32,000 nucleotides of DNA, from the NCBI RefSeq assembly GCF_003231495.1, contig NZ_PQWO01000005.1:210001-242000 (forward strand). The letters run 5' to 3'. Shown here in pieces: positions 3,149-28,496 of the stretch. Positions within the stretch are counted from its first letter, which is position 1; every line of letters begins with the position of its first letter. The notes beneath the pieces are model-generated. The model saw only the letters and a program-made list of their open reading frames with translations, was not told the origin of the DNA and did not search any database. The position numbers and the translations under genes were made by a program. The stretch comes from Acaryochloris thomasi RCC1774 (GTDB lineage Bacteria; Cyanobacteriota; Cyanobacteriia; Thermosynechococcales; Thermosynechococcaceae).

Positions 3149-5128
3149 ATGGTGGTTCGACATCCTGCGGCCCCGTCGCAGCGTTCAGCCAACCCCAATA
3201 TTGATCCGACGGCCTCTATTCATGCCTCTTCTCCCCTGGTGGGAGATATTCGCGTTTCAGCCAATGTTGTGATTGGTCCGGGCGCGTCGATTCAGGCAGG
3301 CAAGGGTCAGTCTTTTCACATTGGCCCCTCAACGAACGTTCAAAACGGCGTTGTGATTCAGGGCTTAGAACAGGGACAAGTGCAGGGTAAGGATCAGCAG
3401 TCGTATTCGGTGTGGATTGGTCAAAACACATCGATTACCCACATGGCTCTGGTGCATGGGCCGGTCTCTATTGGCGATAGCTGCTTTATTGGATTTCGCT
3501 CAACTATTTTCAATGCTCGGGTGGGGGATGGCTGCATCGTGATGATGCACGCCTTAATTCAGGATGTTGAGATTCCGCCGGGCAAGTTTGTGCCGTCAGG
3601 GGCCGTGATTACGACCCAAGAGCAGGCCGACCGCCTCTCTGATGTCCAGTCTGCTGATGTTGAGTTTGCCAGCCGCATTGCCGGCGTTAATCAAGCCGGT
3701 TCTCATCCTGAAGAAAAAGCAATTCGTAATGAAAGTCGTCAACCGTCCTACCAAGGGGGCAATCAATTGAGCCATTCCTCAAGTTCCGATATTTTGTCTC
3801 AGGTTCAGCAACTGCTGCGCCAGGGCTATCAAGTTAGTACTGAGTTTGCCAACGCGCGCCGATTTAAGGCCAATGCCTGGAATACAGGGGGTGCGATCGC
3901 ATCCAATCAAGCATCATCTGTAATGTCAGAACTTGAATCTGTCCTAGCGGAGCATCAAGGCGAGTATGTTCGCCTCGTAGGCATTGATCCTCAAGCCAAG
4001 CGTCGCGTTCTCGAAACCGTTATTCAACGTCCCGGCGAAGAAGTGAACGTGAGTTCGGGGTCACAATCATATTCAGCTGCCCCCGTTCGTCCTGCGGCCC
4101 AGCCCGCCTTTAACAAGCTGAAGTCGACAGATGTTGCCGGTCAGGTCCGCCAGCTTCTCAATCAGGGATATACGATTGGGACCGAGCATGCCAGCCCGCG
4201 TCGGTTCAAGGCTAATGCCTGGCATACCTGCTCTCCCATTAAGTCCCAGCGGGAAGCCGATGTTTTGATTGGCCTGGATGAGTGCGTTGCTGAGCATCCC
4301 GGTGAGTATATTCGTTTAATTGGGATTGATGCTCAAGCCAAGCGACGGGTTGCAGAAATTATTATCTATCGCCCCGTTAAGGGAGCTTCTCCCCAGGCAG
4401 CGAAGAATAACGCTGCGCCCATCTCTCGATCTGCTTCCGGGTCTTCTTCTGCGCCTGCAGCAAATGATCCCTATCCTTCAGTGGACCCTGATATCGCCAC
4501 TCGCGTGCGTCAGCTTCTGGGCCAGGGCTATCGAATTGGGACCGAACATGCCAGCCCACGGCGGTTCCGTGCCAATGCCTGGAATAGCTGCGCTCCCATT
4601 GAATCTCAACGTCCTGCAGAGGTAATGGCGGCACTGGAAGCCTGCGCTGCTGAGCATCCCGGTGAATATATTCGCCTGATTGGCATTGATACTCAGGCAA
4701 AGCGACGCGTTGAAGAGCAGATTATTCAGCGTCCGGGTGAGCAATCTTCTTCTCATTCTGCAGGTAATGCTGGGCGGAATGGGTATTCTTCATCTTCAGC
4801 AAAGCCTGGGCCACCAACCTACAGCCAGTCCTCTAGCATGGGTTCGTCTTCTCCGAGAGCCACGACCGCTATCCAGTCAGACGTGGCCTCTAAGGTGCGT
4901 CAGCTATTAGCGCAGGGACACAAGATCGGGACCGAACATGCCGATAAGCGACGGTTCCGCGCCAATGCTTGGCATAGCTGTGCGCCCATTGAAGCGAAGC
5001 AAGAATCTGCTGTGATGTCAGCGTTAGAGAGCTGCTTGAATGAGCATTCGGGTGAGTATGTTCGTATCGTGGGCATTGATACGAAGGCGAAGCGGCGGGT
5101 GCTGGAATCGGTGATTCAAAGACCCTAG
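3149..5128 (+). CDS. ccmM: carboxysome organising protein CcmM (gamma-carbonic-anhydrase-like N-domain plus four RbcS-like SSUL modules)
   Basis: 659 aa. The N-terminus is a left-handed beta-helix gamma-CA-like domain ([11 protein letters not shown]...[39 protein letters not shown]). Four repeats of the type VRQLLxQGYxIGTEHAxxRRFxANAW...[17 protein letters not shown] follow, separated by S/P/A-rich linkers. Confidence 0.95.
3788..5125 (+). repeat. four tandem SSUL (Rubisco small-subunit-like) coding modules inside ccmM
   Basis: The modules start at 3788, 4130, 4490 and 4880 and end at 4033, 4375, 4735 and 5125. The repeats are visible at both protein and DNA level, and they generate several spurious ORFs in other frames of the track. 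Confidence 0.9.
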
Positions 5129-8716: not shown

Positions 8717-8893
8717 AGGGAATGAATTTCCATTTGGTCTAATCCAGAGGCATAGAAAGATTCTTATCGATGATGGTGGTAAAGCGTGGAGTGCCGCAGC
8801 TTCAGGCGTAAGATTGGCGTATTCAGCATTTAGGAATTTAAGAAGGCAATATATGCTTATCTTCTGTTTTATGCGCCGACAGGAGGGTTGAGT

Positions 8894-9862
8894 ATGGATG
8901 TGAGTTTAATTATCTCCAACATTCTTAATCCCCCGGTTTTATTCTTTTTCCTAGGAATGACGGCGGTTTTAGTCAAGTCAGACCTTGAAATTCCGGCCCC
9001 TATTCCTAAACTATTTTCTCTCTACCTTTTACTGGCAATTGGCTTCAAAGGGGGCGTCGAACTCACTAAAAGCGGCATCAATCAAGAGGTGGTCTTAACG
9101 CTACTGGCGGCCATGATTATGGCGAGTTTGGTGCCCGTTTATACCTACTTCATTCTCAAAATTAAGCTGGGTGTCTACGACGCGGCAGCGATCGCAGCTA
9201 CCTACGGCTCCATTAGTGCCGTCACCTTTATTACCGCCAGCGCCTTTTTGACCGAACTGGGCATCGACTTTGACGGGTTCATGGTCGCCGCCCTCGCACT
9301 TATGGAATCACCAGCCATCATTGTGGGCTTAATTCTGGTGAATCTCTTTGCCATCGCCGACGACCGTGATTTTGCTTGGTCTGAAGTTTTGCGAGAAGCC
9401 TTTCTCAACAGTTCGGTCTTTTTGCTCGTGGGCAGCCTGATTATTGGTGCCTTAACGGGTGAGCATGGTGAAGAGGTGTTAGCCCCCTTTACCCAAGGGC
9501 TATTCTATGGCGTGCTCACCTTCTTTCTGCTGGATATGGGCCTCGTCGCGGCCAAGCGGATTAAGGACTTGCAGAAAACGGGTACATTTCTGATTTCCTT
9601 TGCCATTTTGATCCCCATTGTTAATGCTGCCATTGGCATCCTGATTGCCCGTCTAATTAACATGCCCCAGGGGGATGCGCTGCTGTTTTCAGTACTGTGC
9701 GCTAGCGCCTCCTATATTGCCGTGCCCGCCGCGATGCGGATGACGGTACCGGAAGCAAACCCAAGCCTGTATGTGTCCACAGCGCTGGCGGTGACGTTCC
9801 CCTTCAATATTATTGTGGGGATTCCGCTGTATCTGTACGGCATTGAGCTGTTATGGAGATAA
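8894..9862 (+). CDS. sbtA: sodium-dependent bicarbonate transporter SbtA family permease (short, about 322 aa form)
   Basis: Polytopic membrane protein with an SbtA/DUF897-type sequence: NPPVLFFFLGM...GFKGGVEL...ATYGSISAVTF...ESPAIIVGL...ASASYIAVPAAMR. I prefer the ATG at 8894 (AGGAGGG at 8881-8887) over the TTG at 8888. It is followed by a PII-like gene, as expected for sbtAB. Confidence 0.88.
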   Translation: MDVSLIISNILNPPVLFFFLGMTAVLVKSDLEIPAPIPKLFSLYLLLAIGFKGGVELTKSGINQEVVLTLLAAMIMASLVPVYTYFILKIKLGVYDAAAIAATYGSISAVTFITASAFLTELGIDFDGFMVAALALMESPAIIVGLILVNLFAIADDRDFAWSEVLREAFLNSSVFLLVGSLIIGALTGEHGEEVLAPFTQGLFYGVLTFFLLDMGLVAAKRIKDLQKTGTFLISFAILIPIVNAAIGILIARLINMPQGDALLFSVLCASASYIAVPAAMRMTVPEANPSLYVSTALAVTFPFNIIVGIPLYLYGIELLWR

Positions 9863-10968: not shown

Positions 10969-12675
10969 ATGCCCCCCTCACGGTTAAAACTAGTCAATGG
11001 ACTGCATTTCAAGAACCTCCGAGGGGACTTTTTTGGTGGCATAACGGCAGCAATTGTCGCGCTCCCTTTAGCGCTGGCTTTCGGCGTTTCTTCAGGGGCG
11101 GGCGCAATTCACGGTCTCTACGGCGCTATCTTTGTTGGCTTCTTTGCAGCCCTATTCGGGGGTACGCCTTCTCAAATTTCAGGTCCGACCGGGCCAATGA
11201 CGGTGGTGATGGCGACGATTGTGACCACGCTGACGGCTAAGTACGGCGTTGATGTGGGCTTGGGGATGGCCTTTACCGTCGTCATGCTGGGCGGCATCTT
11301 TCAAATTTTGTTTGGGGTCTTCCAGCTCGGTAAGTTTATTACCCTGATGCCCTACACCGTGATCTCTGGCTTTATGTCAGGGATTGGCGTCATTATCATT
11401 CTGCTGCAAATTGGTCCCCTGCTGGGGCAAGCCGCTTCAGGCAATGTGGTGACATCCGTGGTCGAGATTCCTGCCGTACTTGCCAATATTGAACCGACTT
11501 CAGCGGGGTTGGGGCTGCTAACGCTAGCCATTGTATTTTTGTGGCCGCCTAAGTTAACGCGGGTTGTTCCGGCCCCTTTGCTGGCCCTGGTGATCTGTAC
11601 GCTGCTGTCAGTGTTTGTGCTGCCGGATAATCCTGACGTGCGGCTGATCGGTGAGATTCCTGCGGGGCTGCCTAGCTTTCAACCTCCAACCTTCAACGTT
11701 GCCGTTCTCAAAGAGATGTTGGGCTACGGTATTATGCTAGCGACCTTGGGAGCCATCGATTCGCTGCTGACTTCGCTAGTGGCCGACAACGTCACCCAGA
11801 CCCAACACAATTCAGACCGTGAACTAATCGGACAAGGAATCGGTAATTTTTTGGGGGGCCTCTTTGGCGGCTTGCCGGGAGCCGGGGCCACGATGCGAAC
11901 AGTGATCAACGTCCAGGCCGGTGGGAGAACGCCGCTCTCGGGGATGGTTCACGCGCTGGTGTTGTTGATTATTGTGCTGCAGGCTAGTAGCCTGACTGAG
12001 CCGATTCCGCACTCCGTTTTGGCCGGCATCTTGATCAAGGTCGGCATTGATATTATCGATTGGGCTTTCTTAAAGCGAGCCCATAAGCTTTCGCTCAAAG
12101 GGGCAGGGCTGATGTATCTGGTTCTGTTCCTGACGGTTTTCGTGGACCTGATCACGGCGGTGGCTGTGGGAGCCTTTATCGCTAATTTGCTGACGGTGAA
12201 GTCGTTGACCGATCTGCAGGTGAAGGACATGAAGACGATCGCAGACCCCACCGATGACGGATCGTTAACCGAAGCAGAACAGGATCTGCTGACCCAGATG
12301 AAGGGGCAAGTCTTGTTGTTCTCGCTGGGGGGGCCGATGAGCTTTGGGGCGGCGAAGGCGATCTCTCAGCGCATGAAAATCGTAGAGAAATATGAGGTGA
12401 TTATTCTCGATCTGAGTGAGGTGCCAAGGGTGGGGGTCACGGCCTCACTAGCTATTGAGAATATGCTCAAGGATGCCACTCGAAAGGGACATGCTGCTTT
12501 TCTGGTGGGTGCGAATGGTCAGGTGAAATCGCGCTTGAAGCACCTGGATATTCTCCATGACCTACCCGAGCATCACTGGTCAAATAATCGTCTTGAAGCG
12601 CTGCAACAGTCTTTTAAGTTGGTTCAAAACAACTTAGGGGGAATGACTGCGATGACAGATTCTCCCGGTGGATAA
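10969..12675 (+). CDS. bicA: SulP-family bicarbonate transporter BicA (membrane domain plus C-terminal STAS domain)
   Basis: 568 aa. SulP signatures are present (GDFFGGITAAIVALPLALAFGVSSG...ISGPTGPM...DSLLTS), and the C-terminal STAS region is VLLFSLGGPMSFGAAKAI...VIILDLSEVPRVGVTASLAIE. The CCM gene context supports BicA over a generic sulfate permease. Confidence 0.8.
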   Translation: MPPSRLKLVNGLHFKNLRGDFFGGITAAIVALPLALAFGVSSGAGAIHGLYGAIFVGFFAALFGGTPSQISGPTGPMTVVMATIVTTLTAKYGVDVGLGMAFTVVMLGGIFQILFGVFQLGKFITLMPYTVISGFMSGIGVIIILLQIGPLLGQAASGNVVTSVVEIPAVLANIEPTSAGLGLLTLAIVFLWPPKLTRVVPAPLLALVICTLLSVFVLPDNPDVRLIGEIPAGLPSFQPPTFNVAVLKEMLGYGIMLATLGAIDSLLTSLVADNVTQTQHNSDRELIGQGIGNFLGGLFGGLPGAGATMRTVINVQAGGRTPLSGMVHALVLLIIVLQASSLTEPIPHSVLAGILIKVGIDIIDWAFLKRAHKLSLKGAGLMYLVLFLTVFVDLITAVAVGAFIANLLTVKSLTDLQVKDMKTIADPTDDGSLTEAEQDLLTQMKGQVLLFSLGGPMSFGAAKAISQRMKIVEKYEVIILDLSEVPRVGVTASLAIENMLKDATRKGHAAFLVGANGQVKSRLKHLDILHDLPEHHWSNNRLEALQQSFKLVQNNLGGMTAMTDSPGG

Positions 12676-18997: not shown

Positions 18998-21900
18998 CTA
19001 GAAACGAATTCGATACTCCAGAATGCCGAACGCTTCTCCATCAGTACTGACAGCGCTACGAATCCGCAACTGATCATTAATTTCGTAGCTGAGATTAAAG
19101 AGAGTGGGCTCATCTAGATCGCTGATGATCTGCAGCACTGAAGCTGAGAAGCTATTGGTGAGGTCGTAGCCCACCTCGGCTCCAAACTCTAGCGTAGATC
19201 GGTTGCGGTCATCTTCGTTGGGAATTAACACCGGAAAGACCCTAAAACTGCCGCGACTGCCCAATACATCATCAAAAAGCCCTTCAACCCCTGTAAGAGC
19301 AGCGGTACTGGCAAGGTTCACCAGAGCAAGCTGTGTATCACCTTCCTCTAGTGATTCGGTCACGCCGCCCCCGAGGAGCGCAAAGATCTCACCTTCCGTG
19401 CGGCTGGGGGTGCTGTCTAGCTCTAGAACCCGATCGAAATTACGGGTGAGTTCACTGGCGCGCCCTTCCACGCTGGCCCGTACCCGCACTGATTCAATAT
19501 TGCCCACCGGATTGGTCTGCAGCGCACTGCCTTCATTAAGCGTGGACAGGCGGCTGGCGACGCCGTCGGTGACCGTCGTGACCATGCCCAGACTGAGATA
19601 GGGATCTAGCCCGAACTGCGGCGTGAATTGGGCAAAGTTCTCTCGCCGCCGATCCAAACGAAATCGGCTGGTGAAGAGATTGACGGTGCCGCGACGAAAG
19701 TTAAGAACCCCCTCAGGGCTAAGGTTGTCAATGGAGCCGTTGAGAATTACGTCTCCCGCCGCCGAAAAACTGAGAAGGGGGGGTTGAGCCACGCGCACCG
19801 TGTCCGTGACCGTCACTTTTAAGTCTTTAAACCGTAGCGGCATCGCATTCTCGACCGTATCTGGACTGCTGCCGACGGTTCCCTGTGGGCTGGTTTCCGG
19901 CAGAATCACCTGTCCTTTAGAGAGGGTGATGCCGCCCCCCAGTTGCGGTTTGAATGCCGTGCCCGTGACGATTAAGTTGCCACCAATTTGGCCGCGATAG
20001 AGCCCCTTGAGGCTCAAATCAAGGTTGCGGAGGCTGACCTGAAGCTGATCGGTGCTGCTAGACGCGTAGAGCGGTAGACTCCCGGAGGCCCTCAGGATTC
20101 CTTGGCTGTAACGACCGCTGAGGTTCTTGGCAATGGCGATGCGATCGCGTTCAAATCGAATATCGCCTGAGACGTTAGTGAGCGGCTCATCAAGAGCCTG
20201 GGCCGCAATGATGGCGTTGTTGACCTGTAAACTCCCCGTGACCTGAGGCCGAGCAACGGTTCCCTGGGCTACAACGTTGAGATTGCCCTGACCTTCCCTC
20301 CAGGCCACCTGATCGGTAAATAGATTCAAGACTGAAAGACCCTGATCACGAACGGCTAACCGCACATTGAGCTGGTCGCTCTCTGGGGCAACCGTTGCGA
20401 ACGGGAGCTGATAGGGAATATTGCCGGTCAGTGTAATCGGTTCAGGACTGCTGACATTGGCTGAACCATCGAACTGCAATCGGCCTCGGCTGTAATTGAG
20501 ATCGGCTTGGGCCTGCTGCACCGGAGTTCTATCTAAAGCTGCCTCTGTGACTGAAAAGCGTCCGCGAACCTGGGGGTCTGCCAGTGTTCCGGCCAGCGTT
20601 GCCGCCCCTTCTAAAGAACCTGAGACCTGAAATGGCAACTCTAAAAACTGGTTGAGGGGCTCAATCGGAACATTGGCAAAGGTCAATTTCCCGCCCTGGC
20701 GCTCGCCGCCCACCTGGCCTTCGAACTTGGCAATGCTGTCGCCTGAGGCCGCCTGCAGGGTGTCAAAGGTGAACGCTGTATCTTGCCACTGCCCCTGGAC
20801 CACGATCTGGTCTAGGCTGTAGGGCTGCCATTCAATGTAGCCACTCTTGAGATCAAAGTCACCCTGAAAACCTCGCGCCGTCGATCCCTGGAACTGAATC
20901 TGCCCCACAAGTTGTCCTTCTAAGTCTTCTAGGGGCGGAAAAGGACTCGCTTCTTCCTGCTGTTCTTTCTCTTTCGCAATGAGCTGCTCTATTTCTGTCA
21001 GGCGCTGCAGTTGCGTGAACAGTGGGGCATTGGGTAGGCCCACGGGTACCGTTGTCACATCGGCCGCTGAGCCAAGGGCCGTGAGTTTGTTGTCCAGAGT
21101 CAAGATTTGCCAAGCGGGCACTAAATCGGCTAGCTGGCCGCGCAGTACTTCGATTTCTCCTGATGTTTCAAAGTTGTTGCCAGGGGCGACGCTGGCCGTC
21201 AGTCGGTAACGGCTGTCTCGATAGATTAGATCGGCATCAGTGACGGAGGCTACGCCTTTGGCATAGCGGAGAGACCCAGCAAAGGATTTTCCGAGTAGCT
21301 TGCCGATGCCGGGGCGGTCGATGGCAAACTGTCCCTGCAGGGCGGCGGCGCGGACGTTGGCGGTGAAATCACCTGAAGCCAGTCCAGAAACGGTGCCAAG
21401 GTTGTTGGCGGCCTGGAGGTTGAGCACCTCTAACGGAAACTGGCGCAGCGTTACCCGCAGATCATTGCCCTGAGATCTGCCCAAAGCAATGGCCTGATCG
21501 CGCTTGATGTCGAAAGAACGAGGGAGCTGATCGGGACCGAGGGCGAGGGAGATGCGATCACGAGTCCCTTTCAGCCGCAAATCTAAACCCTGTTCGGCTC
21601 TATATCGAATCGGCCCGCTCAATGGTTCAAAAGCCAGCCGCGTTACGGCCAACTGATTGACGCGCAGCGTCGCGAATAAGTTAGGGGCCGCCACCGTGCC
21701 CGTGAGCCGACCATCCAGATCGGCTCGTCCTGTCAACGGAACAGGCGTGATGCCCTGTGCCTGGAGTCGGCTCAGATCGTATTTTTGAGCTTGGACATTA
21801 AGCGCTAAGGTTGTGAGCTGTAGTCCCTCAGGGCCGTCAAGGTTGACCCCAATCTGGCCACTGGCTAAGAAGTTAGGAGCCGTAGCTCGCTGAACCAAAA

Positions 21901-24220
21901 GTTGCTGTCCATTCCAGCCCACCTGAGCGTTAATGGGATCTTCGACCAGATTAATACCTTCTGAAAACCGCAGCCGCCCCACGCCTTGAGCATTGTTGAG
22001 GCTAAACGTTGAGAAGGGAGCTGTTAAAGCAAACTGTCCCGTCATCTGCCCCCGTAGCGTCGGGTCATAGGCGGGCAACGAGAGACCCGGAATTTCCACG
22101 TTGGCCTGCACCCGATCCCTGGGAATATCGATCAGACCGTTGATGTTGAGATTACCGCCCGGTAGCTGAGTGACCACGTTCTGCAGGCGCGCGAGCTGAT
22201 TGCGAATGATCACCTGCCCCTGGGTGGGGAATTCGCCCTCCAGCGCCTGAAATTCAACCTTTGTTTCGACTTCTTCTGCCGGACCTGACAGAATAATGGG
22301 TCCCTGTACTGGGCCAATTGCAAACCCCGGATCGGCATTGTAAAAACGAGCGACAGCATCCCCAGGGATGTTCTGAGCCTGTAACAATCCCTTGATTTGT
22401 CCTCCTGGTCGCAGATTGTAGCCCACGGCTCCTGTGATTTGTCCGCCTGGCGTGGGCGTCCCTACAATATTTCCGATGGTCAGGTTGGGAGCCTGTAAAC
22501 GGAACTGAGCCGTTAGCCGGTTAAAGGGGACCTCGTCTAGGATCGTCGTCCCTGGCGCGACCATATCTCCTGTCAAAACGGGGTCACTCAAGGCCCCAGT
22601 TACGCGAATATTGCGAGCCTGTACTTTGCCCTGTACGGGAAAAGGCAGTTTCGTCAGTCCCAGTTCGCTGAGGGCTAAATTGGTCTCCATGACCGCCGTT
22701 CTGCCCATTAGGTTAAAGCCGCGTTTGGGATCAATCCAGCCCCCGCCTTGGATCGGGATTTTTCCGTAGAGGGCGGTGGTGTTCTCAAAGCGAGTGGTTA
22801 ATCCCCGCAGCCGCAGTCGGCCGTTCGCTTGGCTGAAGGGTTGAGGGAGGCCCTCAATCTGTCCGGCGACATTGTTGAGTGTAGCGGTGCCCTGCAGGTT
22901 CGGTTGACTGCCTCTTGTAAGTTTGACGAGCAGGTTGACGTTCGCCTGACCCTGACGGAGACGAACCGGTAGATTGTAAGCCTGATCAAGGATATTGGCG
23001 CTGAGGTTGCGACCCTGCACTAATAGATTCAACTGCGGCCAGATCAGCGATCTCTGGTCCTTGAGCGCAATCAGCGCGGCACCTTTCGTTCTGAGGCGTC
23101 CGCCAGAGGCCAAGTTGCCCCGCAGATCAAACTGCACCTGCTGCCGAGGCGTGCCTAAAAATTTGAGGGTGCCGTTGACGCGTCTCAAGTTCTGACGCTG
23201 CTGGCGGTTGTTGTCTAAAAATAGATCCTCAGGTACCCAAACGTTGGCGTCTTGTGCCTGAACGTCACCGGTAATTTTGGGGAGCACCTTAGGCCGATAT
23301 TGGACCTGCAGATCAGTCTGCAGTCGCCTGGCTTGGACTCGGATATTCTCGGAGGTAACGGTGGTGTCAGCGGCCTCAATTTGACCCTTGTAGGCCAGAG
23401 TTAGGGGTTGCTCAGGCTGATAACGAGCCTCTAAGTTACCGCTCACTCGCCCCGATTTAATGGTAATCGGTAAGGTTGGCGCGAGGTCTAGTAGGGGCGG
23501 GACATCTAGATCTTTCAGACTTGCCCATAGCTTCAGGGTTTGTTCGGGTTGCTGCCAGTCAGCTTTAAGGGTGGCCTGCCCACCAGAATCAAGTGTGCCG
23601 GTGGCGTTCAGCCGTAGTGTCTGGTTCTTGTTAGCGAGCGCAAGGGTTCCATTGAGGGGATTGAGCTGCCGGGCCGCTTTGCCCCAAGGCTGCACCTTGA
23701 TCTGCCCCTGGCGTAGCCGGACGGTTTTAATCTCTGTTTTCAGCCAGCTTTTACTGTCTTGGGGAGGCGTGAGTTGGGTGGTTAACCACTGTCCCTCTTG
23801 ATTCTGATCGAGGTACAGGCGGGGATTAATGACGGTGATGTCTAGGTCAATGGTGCGGGTCCACAGAGTCTTCCAGAGGTTGAAGTTGGCTTTAACCGCG
23901 TCGATCTCAACTGAATCTCTGTCGAGGGTGGTACGGCCATTGAGCGTTTGTTCATGGGGGGGAATGCTGGAGGGGCCGATGGCGATGCCGGTAAGGGAGT
24001 AGCCGGTGACGTCCCCTACGTTGACGGGGCGGTTAAGAGATTTGCTGAGGTCCTTGGCGATGGTGGGAGCCAATTCCTGTTTGACGAAGCGATCGCCCCA
24101 CCAAAGACCACCGCCTATGCCTAACAGCAGGAGGCTAAGCACGGGTCTAAACTTACGTCTAGGACGGGTTGGAGGCGAGGAAGTAGGGGGAGTCTCTACT
24201 TCGGAGGAAGGGTCTGACAT
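18998..24220 (-). CDS. tamB: TamB-domain translocation and assembly module protein (cyanobacterial TamB / Tic236 homologue)
   Basis: 1740 aa. An N-terminal anchor (VLSLLLLGIGGGLWWG) is followed by a very long repetitive beta-rich body and a C-terminal DUF490-like end ...FGILEYRIRF. pgsA lies 9 nt downstream on the same strand. Confidence 0.85.
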   Translation of the reverse strand: MSDPSSEVETPPTSSPPTRPRRKFRPVLSLLLLGIGGGLWWGDRFVKQELAPTIAKDLSKSLNRPVNVGDVTGYSLTGIAIGPSSIPPHEQTLNGRTTLDRDSVEIDAVKANFNLWKTLWTRTIDLDITVINPRLYLDQNQEGQWLTTQLTPPQDSKSWLKTEIKTVRLRQGQIKVQPWGKAARQLNPLNGTLALANKNQTLRLNATGTLDSGGQATLKADWQQPEQTLKLWASLKDLDVPPLLDLAPTLPITIKSGRVSGNLEARYQPEQPLTLAYKGQIEAADTTVTSENIRVQARRLQTDLQVQYRPKVLPKITGDVQAQDANVWVPEDLFLDNNRQQRQNLRRVNGTLKFLGTPRQQVQFDLRGNLASGGRLRTKGAALIALKDQRSLIWPQLNLLVQGRNLSANILDQAYNLPVRLRQGQANVNLLVKLTRGSQPNLQGTATLNNVAGQIEGLPQPFSQANGRLRLRGLTTRFENTTALYGKIPIQGGGWIDPKRGFNLMGRTAVMETNLALSELGLTKLPFPVQGKVQARNIRVTGALSDPVLTGDMVAPGTTILDEVPFNRLTAQFRLQAPNLTIGNIVGTPTPGGQITGAVGYNLRPGGQIKGLLQAQNIPGDAVARFYNADPGFAIGPVQGPIILSGPAEEVETKVEFQALEGEFPTQGQVIIRNQLARLQNVVTQLPGGNLNINGLIDIPRDRVQANVEIPGLSLPAYDPTLRGQMTGQFALTAPFSTFSLNNAQGVGRLRFSEGINLVEDPINAQVGWNGQQLLVQRATAPNFLASGQIGVNLDGPEGLQLTTLALNVQAQKYDLSRLQAQGITPVPLTGRADLDGRLTGTVAAPNLFATLRVNQLAVTRLAFEPLSGPIRYRAEQGLDLRLKGTRDRISLALGPDQLPRSFDIKRDQAIALGRSQGNDLRVTLRQFPLEVLNLQAANNLGTVSGLASGDFTANVRAAALQGQFAIDRPGIGKLLGKSFAGSLRYAKGVASVTDADLIYRDSRYRLTASVAPGNNFETSGEIEVLRGQLADLVPAWQILTLDNKLTALGSAADVTTVPVGLPNAPLFTQLQRLTEIEQLIAKEKEQQEEASPFPPLEDLEGQLVGQIQFQGSTARGFQGDFDLKSGYIEWQPYSLDQIVVQGQWQDTAFTFDTLQAASGDSIAKFEGQVGGERQGGKLTFANVPIEPLNQFLELPFQVSGSLEGAATLAGTLADPQVRGRFSVTEAALDRTPVQQAQADLNYSRGRLQFDGSANVSSPEPITLTGNIPYQLPFATVAPESDQLNVRLAVRDQGLSVLNLFTDQVAWREGQGNLNVVAQGTVARPQVTGSLQVNNAIIAAQALDEPLTNVSGDIRFERDRIAIAKNLSGRYSQGILRASGSLPLYASSSTDQLQVSLRNLDLSLKGLYRGQIGGNLIVTGTAFKPQLGGGITLSKGQVILPETSPQGTVGSSPDTVENAMPLRFKDLKVTVTDTVRVAQPPLLSFSAAGDVILNGSIDNLSPEGVLNFRRGTVNLFTSRFRLDRRRENFAQFTPQFGLDPYLSLGMVTTVTDGVASRLSTLNEGSALQTNPVGNIESVRVRASVEGRASELTRNFDRVLELDSTPSRTEGEIFALLGGGVTESLEEGDTQLALVNLASTAALTGVEGLFDDVLGSRGSFRVFPVLIPNEDDRNRSTLEFGAEVGYDLTNSFSASVLQIISDLDEPTLFNLSYEINDQLRIRSAVSTDGEAFGILEYRIRF

Positions 24221-26392: not shown

Positions 26393-26941
26393 ATGATAAA
26401 ACTGGTTGGGATGAGTGGAAGTTTGCGATCGCAATCTTACTCATTTGATGCTTTGAAGCTAGCGCTCAAGAGAGCAGAGGCCTTAGGGGCTGAAGTGGAG
26501 ATACTAGACCTGCGAACGCTGAACCTCCCTTTCTGCAAAGGTGAAGATGACTACGCAGGCTATCCAGATGTTGTCAAGCTGAGGCAGGCCGTGCGCCAAG
26601 CTGATGGCTTGATTTTAGTGACGCCGGAATATCACGGCGGCGTCAGCGGCGTTTTGAAGAATGCCTTAGACCTACTGAGCTTTGAGCACTTGTCAGGCAA
26701 AGTTACCGGAGCCATCAGCGTTCTGGGCGGGCAGGCCAACAGCAATGCGCTCAATCAACTGCGACTGATCACGCGTTGGGTTCATGCCATGATGATTCCA
26801 GAGCAGGTCGCCATCGGCCAAGCTTGGCAAGCCTTCGATGCCAGCGGCAATCTCCAGGACCCCAAATTAGCGGAGCGGCTTGATAAATTTGTGGATAGCC
26901 TTGTTATCACAACCCAAAAGCTTCGCCCCAGTCAAAATTAG
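26393..26941 (+). CDS. NADPH-dependent FMN reductase family protein
   Basis: 182 aa with flavodoxin-like motifs MSGSLRSQSYS and LILVTPEYHGGVSGVLKNALDLL. Confidence 0.8.
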   Translation: MIKLVGMSGSLRSQSYSFDALKLALKRAEALGAEVEILDLRTLNLPFCKGEDDYAGYPDVVKLRQAVRQADGLILVTPEYHGGVSGVLKNALDLLSFEHLSGKVTGAISVLGGQANSNALNQLRLITRWVHAMMIPEQVAIGQAWQAFDASGNLQDPKLAERLDKFVDSLVITTQKLRPSQN

Positions 26942-27108
26942 AGTCAAAGCGCGCAGTACTTTTTCTGTGTAAAGAAAACATCCGTGTTTTTACGGTGTGT
27001 CTTTCGCCGATATTTAAGAGAATATCCGTATTTTCGCGGTTAATGTCTTTGAAACTAGGGTTTACTATAGATTCATTGGGCTGTCATACCCCCCGCATTA
27101 GCCCAGCC

Positions 27109-27209
27109 AAGTCTCCGAAATGGCAACTTGTTCCGAAAGGGCAAGGCGCAAACCAGCGGGCCTAAAAACCATCTTAGGGGTATGGATGCTGCTGGTTCCG
27201 AAGAGACTT
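27109..27209 (+). promoter_or_regulatory. GEMM-I (c-di-GMP-I class) riboswitch-like aptamer, copy 1
   Basis: The P1 strands are AAGTCTC (27109-27115) and GAGACTT (27203-27209). Between them, in order: GGCAA; hairpin CTTG-TT-CC GAAA GG-G-CAAG with a GNRA loop; GCGCAAACC; and a second helix carrying CCTAAA and TATGG, the two halves of the 11-nt GAAA-tetraloop receptor. The block order matches my memory of the Vc2 aptamer: GGGCAAACC-hairpin(GAAA)-GACGCAAAGCC-UCCGGCCUAAACC. Confidence 0.7.
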
Positions 27210-27225
27210 TACTTCATTAAGCAAG

Positions 27226-27260
27226 GGCCTTTACCTTCTGGGTAGGGGCCTTTGTGTTTT
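27226..27260 (+). terminator. intrinsic terminator of riboswitch copy 1
   Basis: GGCCTTTACC (27226-27235) pairs with GGTAGGGGCC (27241-27250) in 10 bp including two G-U pairs, with loop TTCTG. It is followed by TTTGTGTTTT. Confidence 0.75.
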
Positions 27261-27412
27261 AGAACAGAGGTGCCGCAGCGCACGACCGTATAATCCCGGA
27301 AGCCGAGAGTCTGGAAAATAGCTGAAAATCCGTATTTTCACGCTTAAAAGCTGAAAATAAAGATTCTAATATGGATTCATCGGGCTGTTATACCCCCCAC
27401 ATTAGCCCAGCC

Positions 27413-27513
27413 AAGTCTCCGAAATGGCAACTTGTTCCGAAAGGGCAAGGCGCAAACCAGCGGGCCTAAAAACCATCTTAGGGGTATGGATGCTGCTGGT
27501 TCCGAAGAGACTT
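27413..27513 (+). promoter_or_regulatory. GEMM-I (c-di-GMP-I class) riboswitch-like aptamer, copy 2
   Basis: The sequence is identical to copy 1 over the whole 101-nt aptamer. Confidence 0.7.
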
Positions 27514-27529
27514 TACTTCATTGAGCAAG

Positions 27530-27565
27530 GGCCTTTACCTTCTGGGTAGGGGCCTTGCTTGTTTT
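27530..27565 (+). terminator. intrinsic terminator of riboswitch copy 2
   Basis: The stem is the same as in copy 1 (GGCCTTTACC with GGTAGGGGCC), followed by TTGCTTGTTTT. It ends 78 nt upstream of the next start codon. Confidence 0.75.
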
Positions 27566-27643
27566 CGCGGTCGTCTTGATCACCAACCAGCGTTAGAGTT
27601 GTGAGGGATAAAAACAGCGATCGATAGGAGGCAGCGCAGGTTT

Positions 27644-28012
27644 GTGACACCCGCAGAATTTTTGCTGCTACTCATTTCAATTGCGTTCAGTGGCGCAGGG
27701 CAGTTTTTCCTAAAGTCAGGTGCCCTGCAGCTCGGCAAAGTCACAGGTACCAACCTGCTGAGTCACGTGCTCAGCATTGCGACGACGCCCGCTTTGTTGG
27801 TGGGACTGGCCTGCTATGCGTTCGGTGCCATTAGCTATATCATGCTCTTGACCCGCGTCAGTCTTAGCGTTGCTGGTCCTGCTGCCTCGCTGATTTATCT
27901 CGTCTCAGTTTTGTTGGGCTACTTTGCTTTTCAAGAAGCCATTTCCCTGAGCCGCTTAGTAGGGCTAGGCTGCATCGTTTGTGGCGTCATTCTGATTGCG
28001 TGGCAGCGGTAG
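27644..28012 (+). CDS. small 4-TM EamA-like (half-size DMT, ArnE/ArnF-like) membrane protein
   Basis: 122 aa from a GTG start, with AGGAGG at 27626-27631. LLLISIAFSGAGQFFLKSGALQLG...LTRVSLSVAGPAASLIYLVSVLLGYFAFQEAISLSRLVGLGCIVCGVILIAW is a single EamA-type domain. Confidence 0.65.
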   Translation: MTPAEFLLLLISIAFSGAGQFFLKSGALQLGKVTGTNLLSHVLSIATTPALLVGLACYAFGAISYIMLLTRVSLSVAGPAASLIYLVSVLLGYFAFQEAISLSRLVGLGCIVCGVILIAWQR

Positions 28013-28079: not shown

Positions 28080-28496
28080 ATGTCCACGTATTGCAACGAA
28101 AGCCTGTATTCACAGTTGTTGTCTTTATGGAGTGCCAGGTCAGTGATCACCTCTAAACTATTTCCCTTCGCTATTTTTTGTGTGTTTGCGGGTATTGCCT
28201 GTCCTACGCAAGCTCAGTCTTTGGACCCCGTTGAACAAACTTTAGTTGAGCAGGGTATTAGAGACGTCCTGTCTTCTCCTGGCGGCCTCTTGACGGTCCC
28301 TAATTCTGCAGGCGCAAATAGGCCGCAAAGTGCGCCTCCTACAAAAGCCGCTGAGTACGAATATGACGCAGAAAAAACAGCCAAGGGTTGTGGTGAGCAG
28401 CAGAACGACGAACTCACCTTTTCCAGTCAGGGAGAATATGGGCCTGAAGATATCGGTAGTACCGCTAGCCAGTCCTTTGAATCCTCTGATTGTTGA
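28080..28496 (+). CDS. hypothetical secreted acidic protein
   Basis: There is a hydrophobic signal-like segment KLFPFAIFCVFAGIACPTQAQS, then a low-complexity, acidic, probably disordered sequence. The start codon is uncertain and no family was recognised. Confidence 0.4.
   Translation: MSTYCNESLYSQLLSLWSARSVITSKLFPFAIFCVFAGIACPTQAQSLDPVEQTLVEQGIRDVLSSPGGLLTVPNSAGANRPQSAPPTKAAEYEYDAEKTAKGCGEQQNDELTFSSQGEYGPEDIGSTASQSFESSDC

Follow-up and report, generated by a model that had tools for sequence, protein, structure and literature searches.

Known c-di-GMP-I riboswitches and the Acaryochloris thomasi locus

Riboswitches of the c-di-GMP-I class (GEMM-I; Rfam family RF01051) sense cyclic diguanylate (c-di-GMP). 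Two aptamers of this class are described here in tandem, in the leader of a small EamA/ArnE-like membrane-protein gene of Acaryochloris thomasi RCC1774 (Cyanobacteriota, Acaryochloridales). The locus lies on a 32,000-nt stretch of DNA (the window: contig NZ_PQWO01000005.1, positions 210,001 to 242,000). In the aptamer of Vc2, from Vibrio cholerae, the residues G20, A47 and C92 contact the ligand (PMC4744006, PMC5888326, PMC9481103). Cd1 of Clostridioides difficile, upstream of the flagellar operon, is an OFF switch in which aptamer and terminator coexist, whereas in the pilM ON switch the two structures are mutually exclusive (Landgraf et al., PMC9262584). Tandem c-di-GMP-I riboswitches form the commonest tandem class, with 347 doublets and 12 triplets (Sherlock et al., 2022, PMC9481103), and the triple tandem Bc3-5 of Bacillus thuringiensis has been characterised experimentally (PMC4759541). 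For riboswitches that stand in tandem and recognise the same ligand, a "pseudo-cooperative" logic has been published, from which a more switch-like response is expected (PMC9481103, PMC4759541). Because so many doublets and triplets are already published (PMC9481103), the tandem architecture itself is known and not novel.

The A. thomasi locus resembles each of these systems in part. With Vc2 it shares the GAAA tetraloop and the 11-nt-type receptor, the equivalents of G20, A47 and C92, and the order of the sequence blocks; however, the similarity in sequence is at the family level only, and Vc2 has neither a comparable terminator platform nor a tandem copy. With Cd1 it shares the aptamer family, a downstream terminator that does not overlap the aptamer, and a candidate antiterminator made of the 3' strand of the closing helix P1 and the 5' arm of the terminator (PMC9262584). 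It departs from Cd1 in belonging to the Cyanobacteriota, in preceding a small EamA-like membrane-protein gene, in having two cassettes and in the weaker putative antiterminator. Like Bc3-5 and the catalogued tandems, it places complete c-di-GMP-I riboswitches in series, each with its own platform (PMC4759541, PMC9481103). In contrast to them, each unit also has a promoter-like region and an inverted repeat, features not described for the catalogued tandems in these two papers, and the units may therefore fire independently.

Two c-di-GMP-I aptamers in one leader

The leader (26942-27643) occupies the space between an FMN reductase gene (26393-26941) and a 122-aa open reading frame (ORF). A preliminary description of this DNA, made from the letters alone, had read two tandem GEMM-I units there and proposed a search with RF01051, taking c-di-GMP-II (RF01786) and ykkC (RF00442) as controls. 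The search bears this reading out. At gathering thresholds, Rfam 15 returns exactly two matches in the whole window, both to RF01051 and both on the strand of the gene (Table 1). Each scores 44.6 bits against a gathering score of 35 bits and spans positions 1-87 of the 87-position model. The E-value is 9e-6 when the entire window is searched and 2e-7 within the 801-nt region 26900-27700. A permissive scan of the latter region (E up to 10) gives no match to either control and none to any other riboswitch family; its sole extra match, to the trpB-motif (E = 9.8), is meaningless. Judged by the curated Rfam threshold, both are genuine aptamers of the c-di-GMP-I class, and chance resemblance is excluded, the match being far beyond chance.

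In the aptamer fold, P1 closes a junction of two hairpins, one capped by GAAA and the other carrying the receptor. The AAGUCUC/GAGACUU closing helix noticed earlier is present in both units, and the further blocks that had been listed (GGCAA, the GAAA-capped hairpin, GCGCAAACC, and CCUAAA with UAUGG) are all found in their places. Applied to an alignment of nine homologous units, RNAalifold finds P1 and, within it, the GAAA hairpin and the receptor helix, as well as the leader hairpin in front of the aptamer and the terminator behind it. Pair counts over the same nine units find 98.9% of cells paired and no pair broken, as compared with 33-56% in slid controls, in which pairing was recounted after the partner strands had been displaced. 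One pair of P1 is compensatory (U-A to C-G in four sequences), and the receptor helix has five one-sided changes, all of which keep the pairing.

The leader had also been called free of ORFs. Mechanical ORFs of 41-56 aa do overlap the aptamers, but they show no coding signal: no Shine-Dalgarno sequence was found for them, and the homologue substitutions number 2, 4 and 5 at codon positions 1, 2 and 3, without third-position bias. The substitutions track RNA pairing instead, and a reading of the aptamer as a duplicated 41-aa small ORF was rejected. Scans of metagenomes with a pattern of the aptamer core yielded 0 and then 2 matches; both lie in coding-like, GC-rich DNA, lack Rfam support and are regarded as chance matches.

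Expression platforms

An intrinsic-terminator-like hairpin follows each aptamer. In both units it comprises 14 bp, G-U pairs included, and starts 13 nt after P1; the preliminary description was right in placing a hairpin and a U-tract here, but had given 10 bp and a distance of 17 nt. The pairing is retained in 97.9% of cells (27-65% in slid controls), and six pairs are changed on both sides, so that the terminator hairpins are well supported by compensatory changes in homologues. Their folding energies are -23.9 kcal/mol in unit 1 and -22.1 kcal/mol in unit 2, within a range of -17 to -27 kcal/mol across homologues. A simple terminator scan flags the hairpin of unit 2 and passes over that of unit 1, because the extended stem of the latter consumes part of the U-tract. 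These observations support two complete riboswitches in tandem, 304 nt apart, each with its own terminator-type expression platform.

The duplicated cassette

The aptamers and terminators belong to a direct repeat that extends further than had been reported. Positions 27020-27252 match 27324-27556 with a period of 304 nt and 91% identity over 233 nt; the copies are near-identical between about 27070 and 27262 but differ more in the part before it, and the repeated unit measures about 240 nt. Each unit holds, in this order, an inverted repeat, promoter-like hexamers, a leader hairpin, the aptamer and the terminator hairpin. Because the repeated unit also includes the inverted repeat, the -10-like box and the leader hairpin, the duplication copied an entire cassette, from promoter-like region through riboswitch to terminator, and not merely two aptamers in one leader.

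The inverted-repeat motif, TCCGTATTTTC(G/A)CG(G/C), opens each unit, and a third copy lies just past the stop codon of the FMN reductase gene. In its exact form, TCCGTRTTTTYRCGS, the inverted repeat occurs three times within about 360 nt (positions in Table 1) and nowhere else in the 32 kb, a copy number reached by none of 100 shuffles. In each unit it adjoins the -35-like hexamer, and the single-copy homologues keep it in the form CGTA-N4-5-TACGG. The repeat is probably bound by a dimeric transcription factor. The third copy may be such a protein-binding site or a terminator-like hairpin of the FMN reductase gene.

The hexamers follow the consensus TTAAnn (-35-like) and TAnnAT (-10-like). In the latter, the T, A, A and T are invariant in 9/9 units within a flank that averages 68% identity, and this conservation points to a putative promoter, weak and of the sigma-70 type. 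A perfect TATAAT (27289-27294) stands within GACCGTATAAT in the spacer between the units, and the same string occurs in the inter-unit spacer of the second tandem species introduced below (locus L083); it could be either a remnant or an additional promoter element.

The leader hairpin has seven pairs, none of which vary, with 98% of cells paired over the nine units. Over 8 nt its loop, CATACCCC, could pair without a mismatch with GGGGTATG, which lies in the receptor helix of the aptamer. A pairing between the two was rejected as evidence, as 213 of 2000 dinucleotide shuffles of the leader do equally well.

Proposed mechanism and switching direction

With a probability of roughly 80%, the locus is read here as two tandem cassettes, each a complete c-di-GMP-sensing transcription-attenuation riboswitch, in the leader of the EamA/ArnE-like gene. 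Promoter activity, ligand, switching direction and dose-response effect are predicted parts of this reading. The terminator does not overlap the aptamer, and the minimum-energy fold of the full unit contains both. This coexistence, together with the potential pairing of the P1 3' strand and the terminator 5' arm, matches Cd1, and an OFF switch is therefore tentatively predicted, at somewhat better than even odds. Binding of c-di-GMP would lock P1 and leave the terminator 5' arm free, so that the terminator forms and transcription stops. When the ligand is absent, an antiterminator could form between the P1 3' strand and the terminator 5' arm and let the polymerase read through. Transcripts from the upstream promoter would meet two c-di-GMP-gated terminators, which would lower the leak and steepen the response, while those from the inner promoter would meet one terminator only.

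The candidate antiterminator was compared in ten homologues. In every one of them the terminator 5' arm is able to pair with AGRGRCUUU, which comprises the P1 3' strand and two further nucleotides; 87.8% of cells are paired as against 36-76% in slid controls, and the resulting hairpin is the local minimum-energy fold in 5/10.

Several observations weigh against the attenuation reading or parts of it. The clade is narrow and its diversity low; most aptamer pairs are invariant, and local covariation therefore adds little to the Rfam score, on which family membership rests. Covariation in the candidate antiterminator is no better than column composition would give (476 of 500 shuffles match it). 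In A. thomasi itself an A-C mismatch between 27207 and 27228 interrupts the antiterminator, and the local minimum-energy fold is a different one. In a thermodynamic search for a conserved antiterminator, ensemble folding of transcripts that end before the terminator 3' arm gave no consistent partner of the terminator 5' arm across homologues, and the energy differences were only 0 to -2.8 kcal/mol. The U-tract of unit 1 is interrupted. A consensus promoter scan flags neither promoter, because the -35 hexamers are poor. Finally, if the inner promoter is active, it would dilute the steepening that two riboswitches in series could give.

The same elements could work in the opposite direction, with c-di-GMP blocking termination so that the membrane protein is induced at high c-di-GMP. 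Such an ON switch is judged unlikely, although it is the most probable of the alternatives. Both directions are known among c-di-GMP-I and related riboswitches (PMC9262584, PMC9481103), and the candidate antiterminator, which lacks covariation, is weak at -4 to -9 kcal/mol in comparison with the terminator (-17 to -27 kcal/mol). Folding of the truncated A. thomasi transcript prefers another partner for the terminator 5' arm, namely the 3' strand of the hairpin capped by GAAA, by only 1.3 kcal/mol. In known ON designs such as pilM, however, the terminator overlaps the aptamer and the two are mutually exclusive (PMC9262584), whereas in A. thomasi the terminator begins beyond P1 and is compatible with the folded aptamer.

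One transcript or two

The OFF-switch model with two riboswitches in series supposes that some transcripts run through both units. Unit 2 keeps a conserved promoter-like box of its own, which bears on whether the units share one transcript. In a rather improbable alternative they are separate transcription units: unit 1 would mainly give rise to a free RNA, about 185 nt long and terminated by its own hairpin, possibly a c-di-GMP-binding decoy or a trans-acting small RNA derived from a riboswitch, and only unit 2 would control the gene in cis. The duplication does take in about 100 nt upstream of the aptamer, each unit retains its inverted repeat and its invariant TAnnAT at 17 nt from the -35-like hexamer, and both copies are intact in two species. 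These promoter-like sites are nevertheless putative and are not scored as promoters by the scan, and no trans target came up, though none was sought. In the second tandem species, moreover, the U-tract behind the unit 1 hairpin, CCTTAGCTTGTAGG, is poor, and this speaks for transcription continuing into unit 2. A still more speculative combination would have the upstream cassette act as an autonomous small RNA with c-di-GMP-dependent termination in addition to gating the gene, the inverted repeat adding control at the protein level, in what may be the first lineage of c-di-GMP riboswitches described in cyanobacteria.

Homologous leaders and the history of the tandem

Among species-representative genomes, 377 relatives of the EamA-like protein show that the family is widespread in cyanobacteria. 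From these, 80 orthologous loci (L001-L080) were taken, and further contigs were reached via identical proteins. Matches to RF01051, with scores of 39.7-45.5 bits, precede the orthologous gene in at least six further distinct sequences, and they occur only near the closest orthologs, which have at least 80% protein identity to that of A. thomasi. It is absent upstream of the ortholog in the 57 loci of other cyanobacterial lineages screened with Rfam (L004-L060), and no aptamer was seen in the 20 loci screened with a regular expression alone (L061-L080). One relative with 82% identity (L093) has no riboswitch within the 252 nt available upstream. The linkage persists where the flanking genes differ (L088-L091). 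The association between riboswitch and gene is real; it travels with the gene and does not extend beyond a narrow clade.

The copy numbers of the homologous leaders are given in Table 1. The second tandem species is a related uncultured cyanobacterium, represented by two assemblies (L083, L084). Its copies differ at 9 of 150 positions, both exceed the gathering threshold, and the aptamer substitutions preserve pairing; those of A. thomasi differ at 4 of 150 leader and aptamer positions. In this second species (L083, 2153-3001) the FMN reductase gene is absent between a DUF3084 gene and the riboswitches, and a 68-aa ORF called over the second aptamer is probably spurious. Five related contigs (L081, L082, L085, L086, L092) begin inside a c-di-GMP-I aptamer. 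Short-read assemblies typically break at repeats, which suggests that these genomes may hold two or more copies as well.

In A. thomasi, the flank upstream of unit 1 most resembles that of a single-copy homologue (L087). The upstream region of unit 2, in turn, is closest to unit 2 of the second tandem species (36 differences, compared with 46-51), which speaks for an old duplication that has been retained. The downstream tails of both unit-2 copies match the tail of the single-copy loci. The pattern fits one duplication in a common ancestor of A. thomasi and the second species, followed by homogenisation in A. thomasi. Because both copies of the second species remain above the Rfam threshold and their substitutions keep the pairing, comparison of the sequences argues for selection having maintained both.

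It is improbable that the duplication is instead neutral, a fairly recent tandem repeat or an assembly artefact with one functionless copy. The few differences between the A. thomasi copies would suit such a view, as would the contigs that break inside the aptamer, a sign that the repeat troubles assemblers. Yet the flanks of the copies differ, with divergent promoter regions and 91% identity over the whole repeat, unlike a collapsed or duplicated read; the tandem recurs in two independent assemblies of another species, where the copies have diverged and kept their pairing and score; and the affinity of unit 2 to its counterpart there speaks against a recent origin.

Ligand

Equivalences to Vc2 were read from the Rfam alignment and rest on a count along the Vc2 sequence, with the help of PMC4744006 and PMC5888326. 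The unpaired G directly 5' of the G-C pairs, G27122 in unit 1 and G27426 in unit 2, corresponds to G20. In unit 1, A27150, the first A after GCGC, corresponds to A47, and the equivalent of C92 lies within the CC of TCCGAA (27197-27202). All three are unchanged across the nine units. At the discriminating position, G goes with c-di-GMP and A with 3'3'-cyclic GMP-AMP (3'3'-cGAMP; PMC9481103). The preliminary description had left the choice between these ligands to a junction purine. Both units and all homologues have G there, as opposed to the A that marks the GEMM-Ib group, and because all nine sequences agree, c-di-GMP is predicted as the ligand of both units. That the aptamers bind 3'3'-cGAMP is very unlikely given this G and its published link to c-di-GMP (PMC9481103), even though both ligand classes share the fold and the Rfam model and specificity can hinge on more than one nucleotide.

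The regulated gene and its neighbourhood

The 122-aa product is 100% identical to WP_110986038.1 of A. thomasi RCC1774, annotated as "ArnE" or "EamA family transporter"; this match came from a homology search, exact-sequence look-ups of this protein and of the FMN reductase having returned no record. Its matches to ArnF/ArnE are far under the NCBIfam cut-offs (41 vs 99 bits), and a role as a lipid-linked sugar flippase is for this reason only a hint. A profile search of Protein Data Bank sequences was uninformative, with a single marginal match to DMT/LicB (E = 0.086), and the gene context of the ortholog in other cyanobacteria is variable and gave no functional clue.

The gene upstream of the leader encodes an FMN reductase (Pfam FMN_red). 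Downstream of the EamA-like gene, a 138-aa ORF (28080-28496) with a hydrophobic N-terminus and no family match may be co-transcribed with it; ORFs of similar size without a Pfam domain occupy the same position in L081, L083, L087 and L092, followed by ylqF and tpiA. The cyanobacterial small RNA Yfr1 (RF01116) is found some 2.2 kb downstream from the EamA-like ortholog in several genomes of Symploca and Caldora. Elsewhere the window carries genes for CcmM with RbcS-like repeats, SbtA, a BicA-like SulP/STAS transporter and a TamB-family protein of 1740 aa. None of these has a connection with the riboswitches, and such a content fits a cyanobacterial chromosome.

Table 1. Features of the tandem riboswitch locus in the A. 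thomasi window, with related loci (positions are those of the window unless a locus is named)
Feature	Position	Strand	Evidence or remark
Unit 1 aptamer including P1	27109-27209	+	RF01051 match 27112-27202; RNAalifold; pair counts
Unit 1 P1	AAGTCTC 27109-27115 / GAGACTT 27203-27209	+	
Unit 1 GAAA tetraloop	27135-27138	+	
Unit 1 tetraloop-receptor halves	CCTAAA 27161-27166; TATGG 27181-27185	+	11-nt receptor type
Unit 2 aptamer including P1	27413-27513	+	RF01051 match 27416-27506, 44.6 bits
Unit 2 P1	27413-27419 / 27507-27513	+	
Unit 1 terminator-like hairpin (intrinsic)	27223-27260	+	5' arm 27223-27236, loop TCT, 3' arm 27240-27253, then tract TTTGTGTTTT
Unit 2 terminator-like hairpin (intrinsic)	27527-27566	+	tract TTGCTTGTTTT; terminator scan flags 27528-27556
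Unit 1 promoter-like region	27025-27068	+	inverted repeat TCCGTATTTTCGCGG 27025-27039; 17-nt spacer between hexamers
Unit 1 hexamers	-35-like TTAATG 27040-27045; -10-like TACTAT 27063-27068	+	
Unit 2 promoter-like region	27329-27372	+	inverted repeat TCCGTATTTTCACGC 27329-27343; 17-nt spacer between hexamers
Unit 2 hexamers	-35-like TTAAAA 27344-27349; -10-like TAATAT 27367-27372	+	
Extra inverted-repeat copy	26981-26995	+	TCCGTGTTTTTACGG; scan lists it as terminator-like
Unit 1 5' leader hairpin	27076-27106	+	stem TTGGGCT/AGCCCAG, invariant C-rich loop, CATACCCCCC
Unit 2 5' leader hairpin	27380-27410	+	RNAalifold; pair counts
Regulated gene, 122-aa EamA/TMEM234-type half-size DMT membrane protein	27644-28012	+	both units upstream, same strand
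Shine-Dalgarno AGGAGG of regulated gene	27626-27631	+	read from sequence
Carbon-concentrating genes and TamB-family gene	3149-5128, 8888-9862, 10969-12675, 18998-24220		
Yfr1 (RF01116) sites in other genomes	L030 5301-5363; L034 3469-3531; L035 5217-5279; L054 5261-5323		
L001, L002			protein identity 81%; single riboswitch copy
L087			protein identity 89%; single riboswitch copy
L088-L091			protein identity 80%; single riboswitch copy, different flanking genes
L083, L084 (= L003)			protein identity 93-94%; two riboswitch copies, 319 nt apart
L081			protein identity 92%; contig starts inside aptamer

Implications for c-di-GMP signalling in cyanobacteria

Cyanobacteria use c-di-GMP extensively, in light-dependent motility, aggregation and the control of cell size, and to our knowledge few effectors of it have been described in them. 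According to a 2023 review, c-di-GMP riboswitches had yet to be identified in cyanobacteria (PMC10124867), and a 2026 Rfam screen of 202 cyanobacterial genomes lists eight riboswitch families, c-di-GMP-I not among them (PMC12873609). No published report of a c-di-GMP-I riboswitch in cyanobacteria was found in the papers searched, although automated pipelines may already label these elements; the present lineage may be the first to be described in the phylum. Its significance is limited in that the family and its tandem use are well known, a standard Rfam scan suffices to find it and the clade is narrow. A modest interest lies in a putative RNA effector of c-di-GMP in a phylum without a described example and in the cassette-type duplication. 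At the level of RNA, the riboswitch would constitute an output of cyanobacterial c-di-GMP signalling, and it could serve as a native part for c-di-GMP reporters in these organisms. It also suggests that c-di-GMP controls a small EamA/ArnE-like membrane protein, whose function may lie in the cell envelope.

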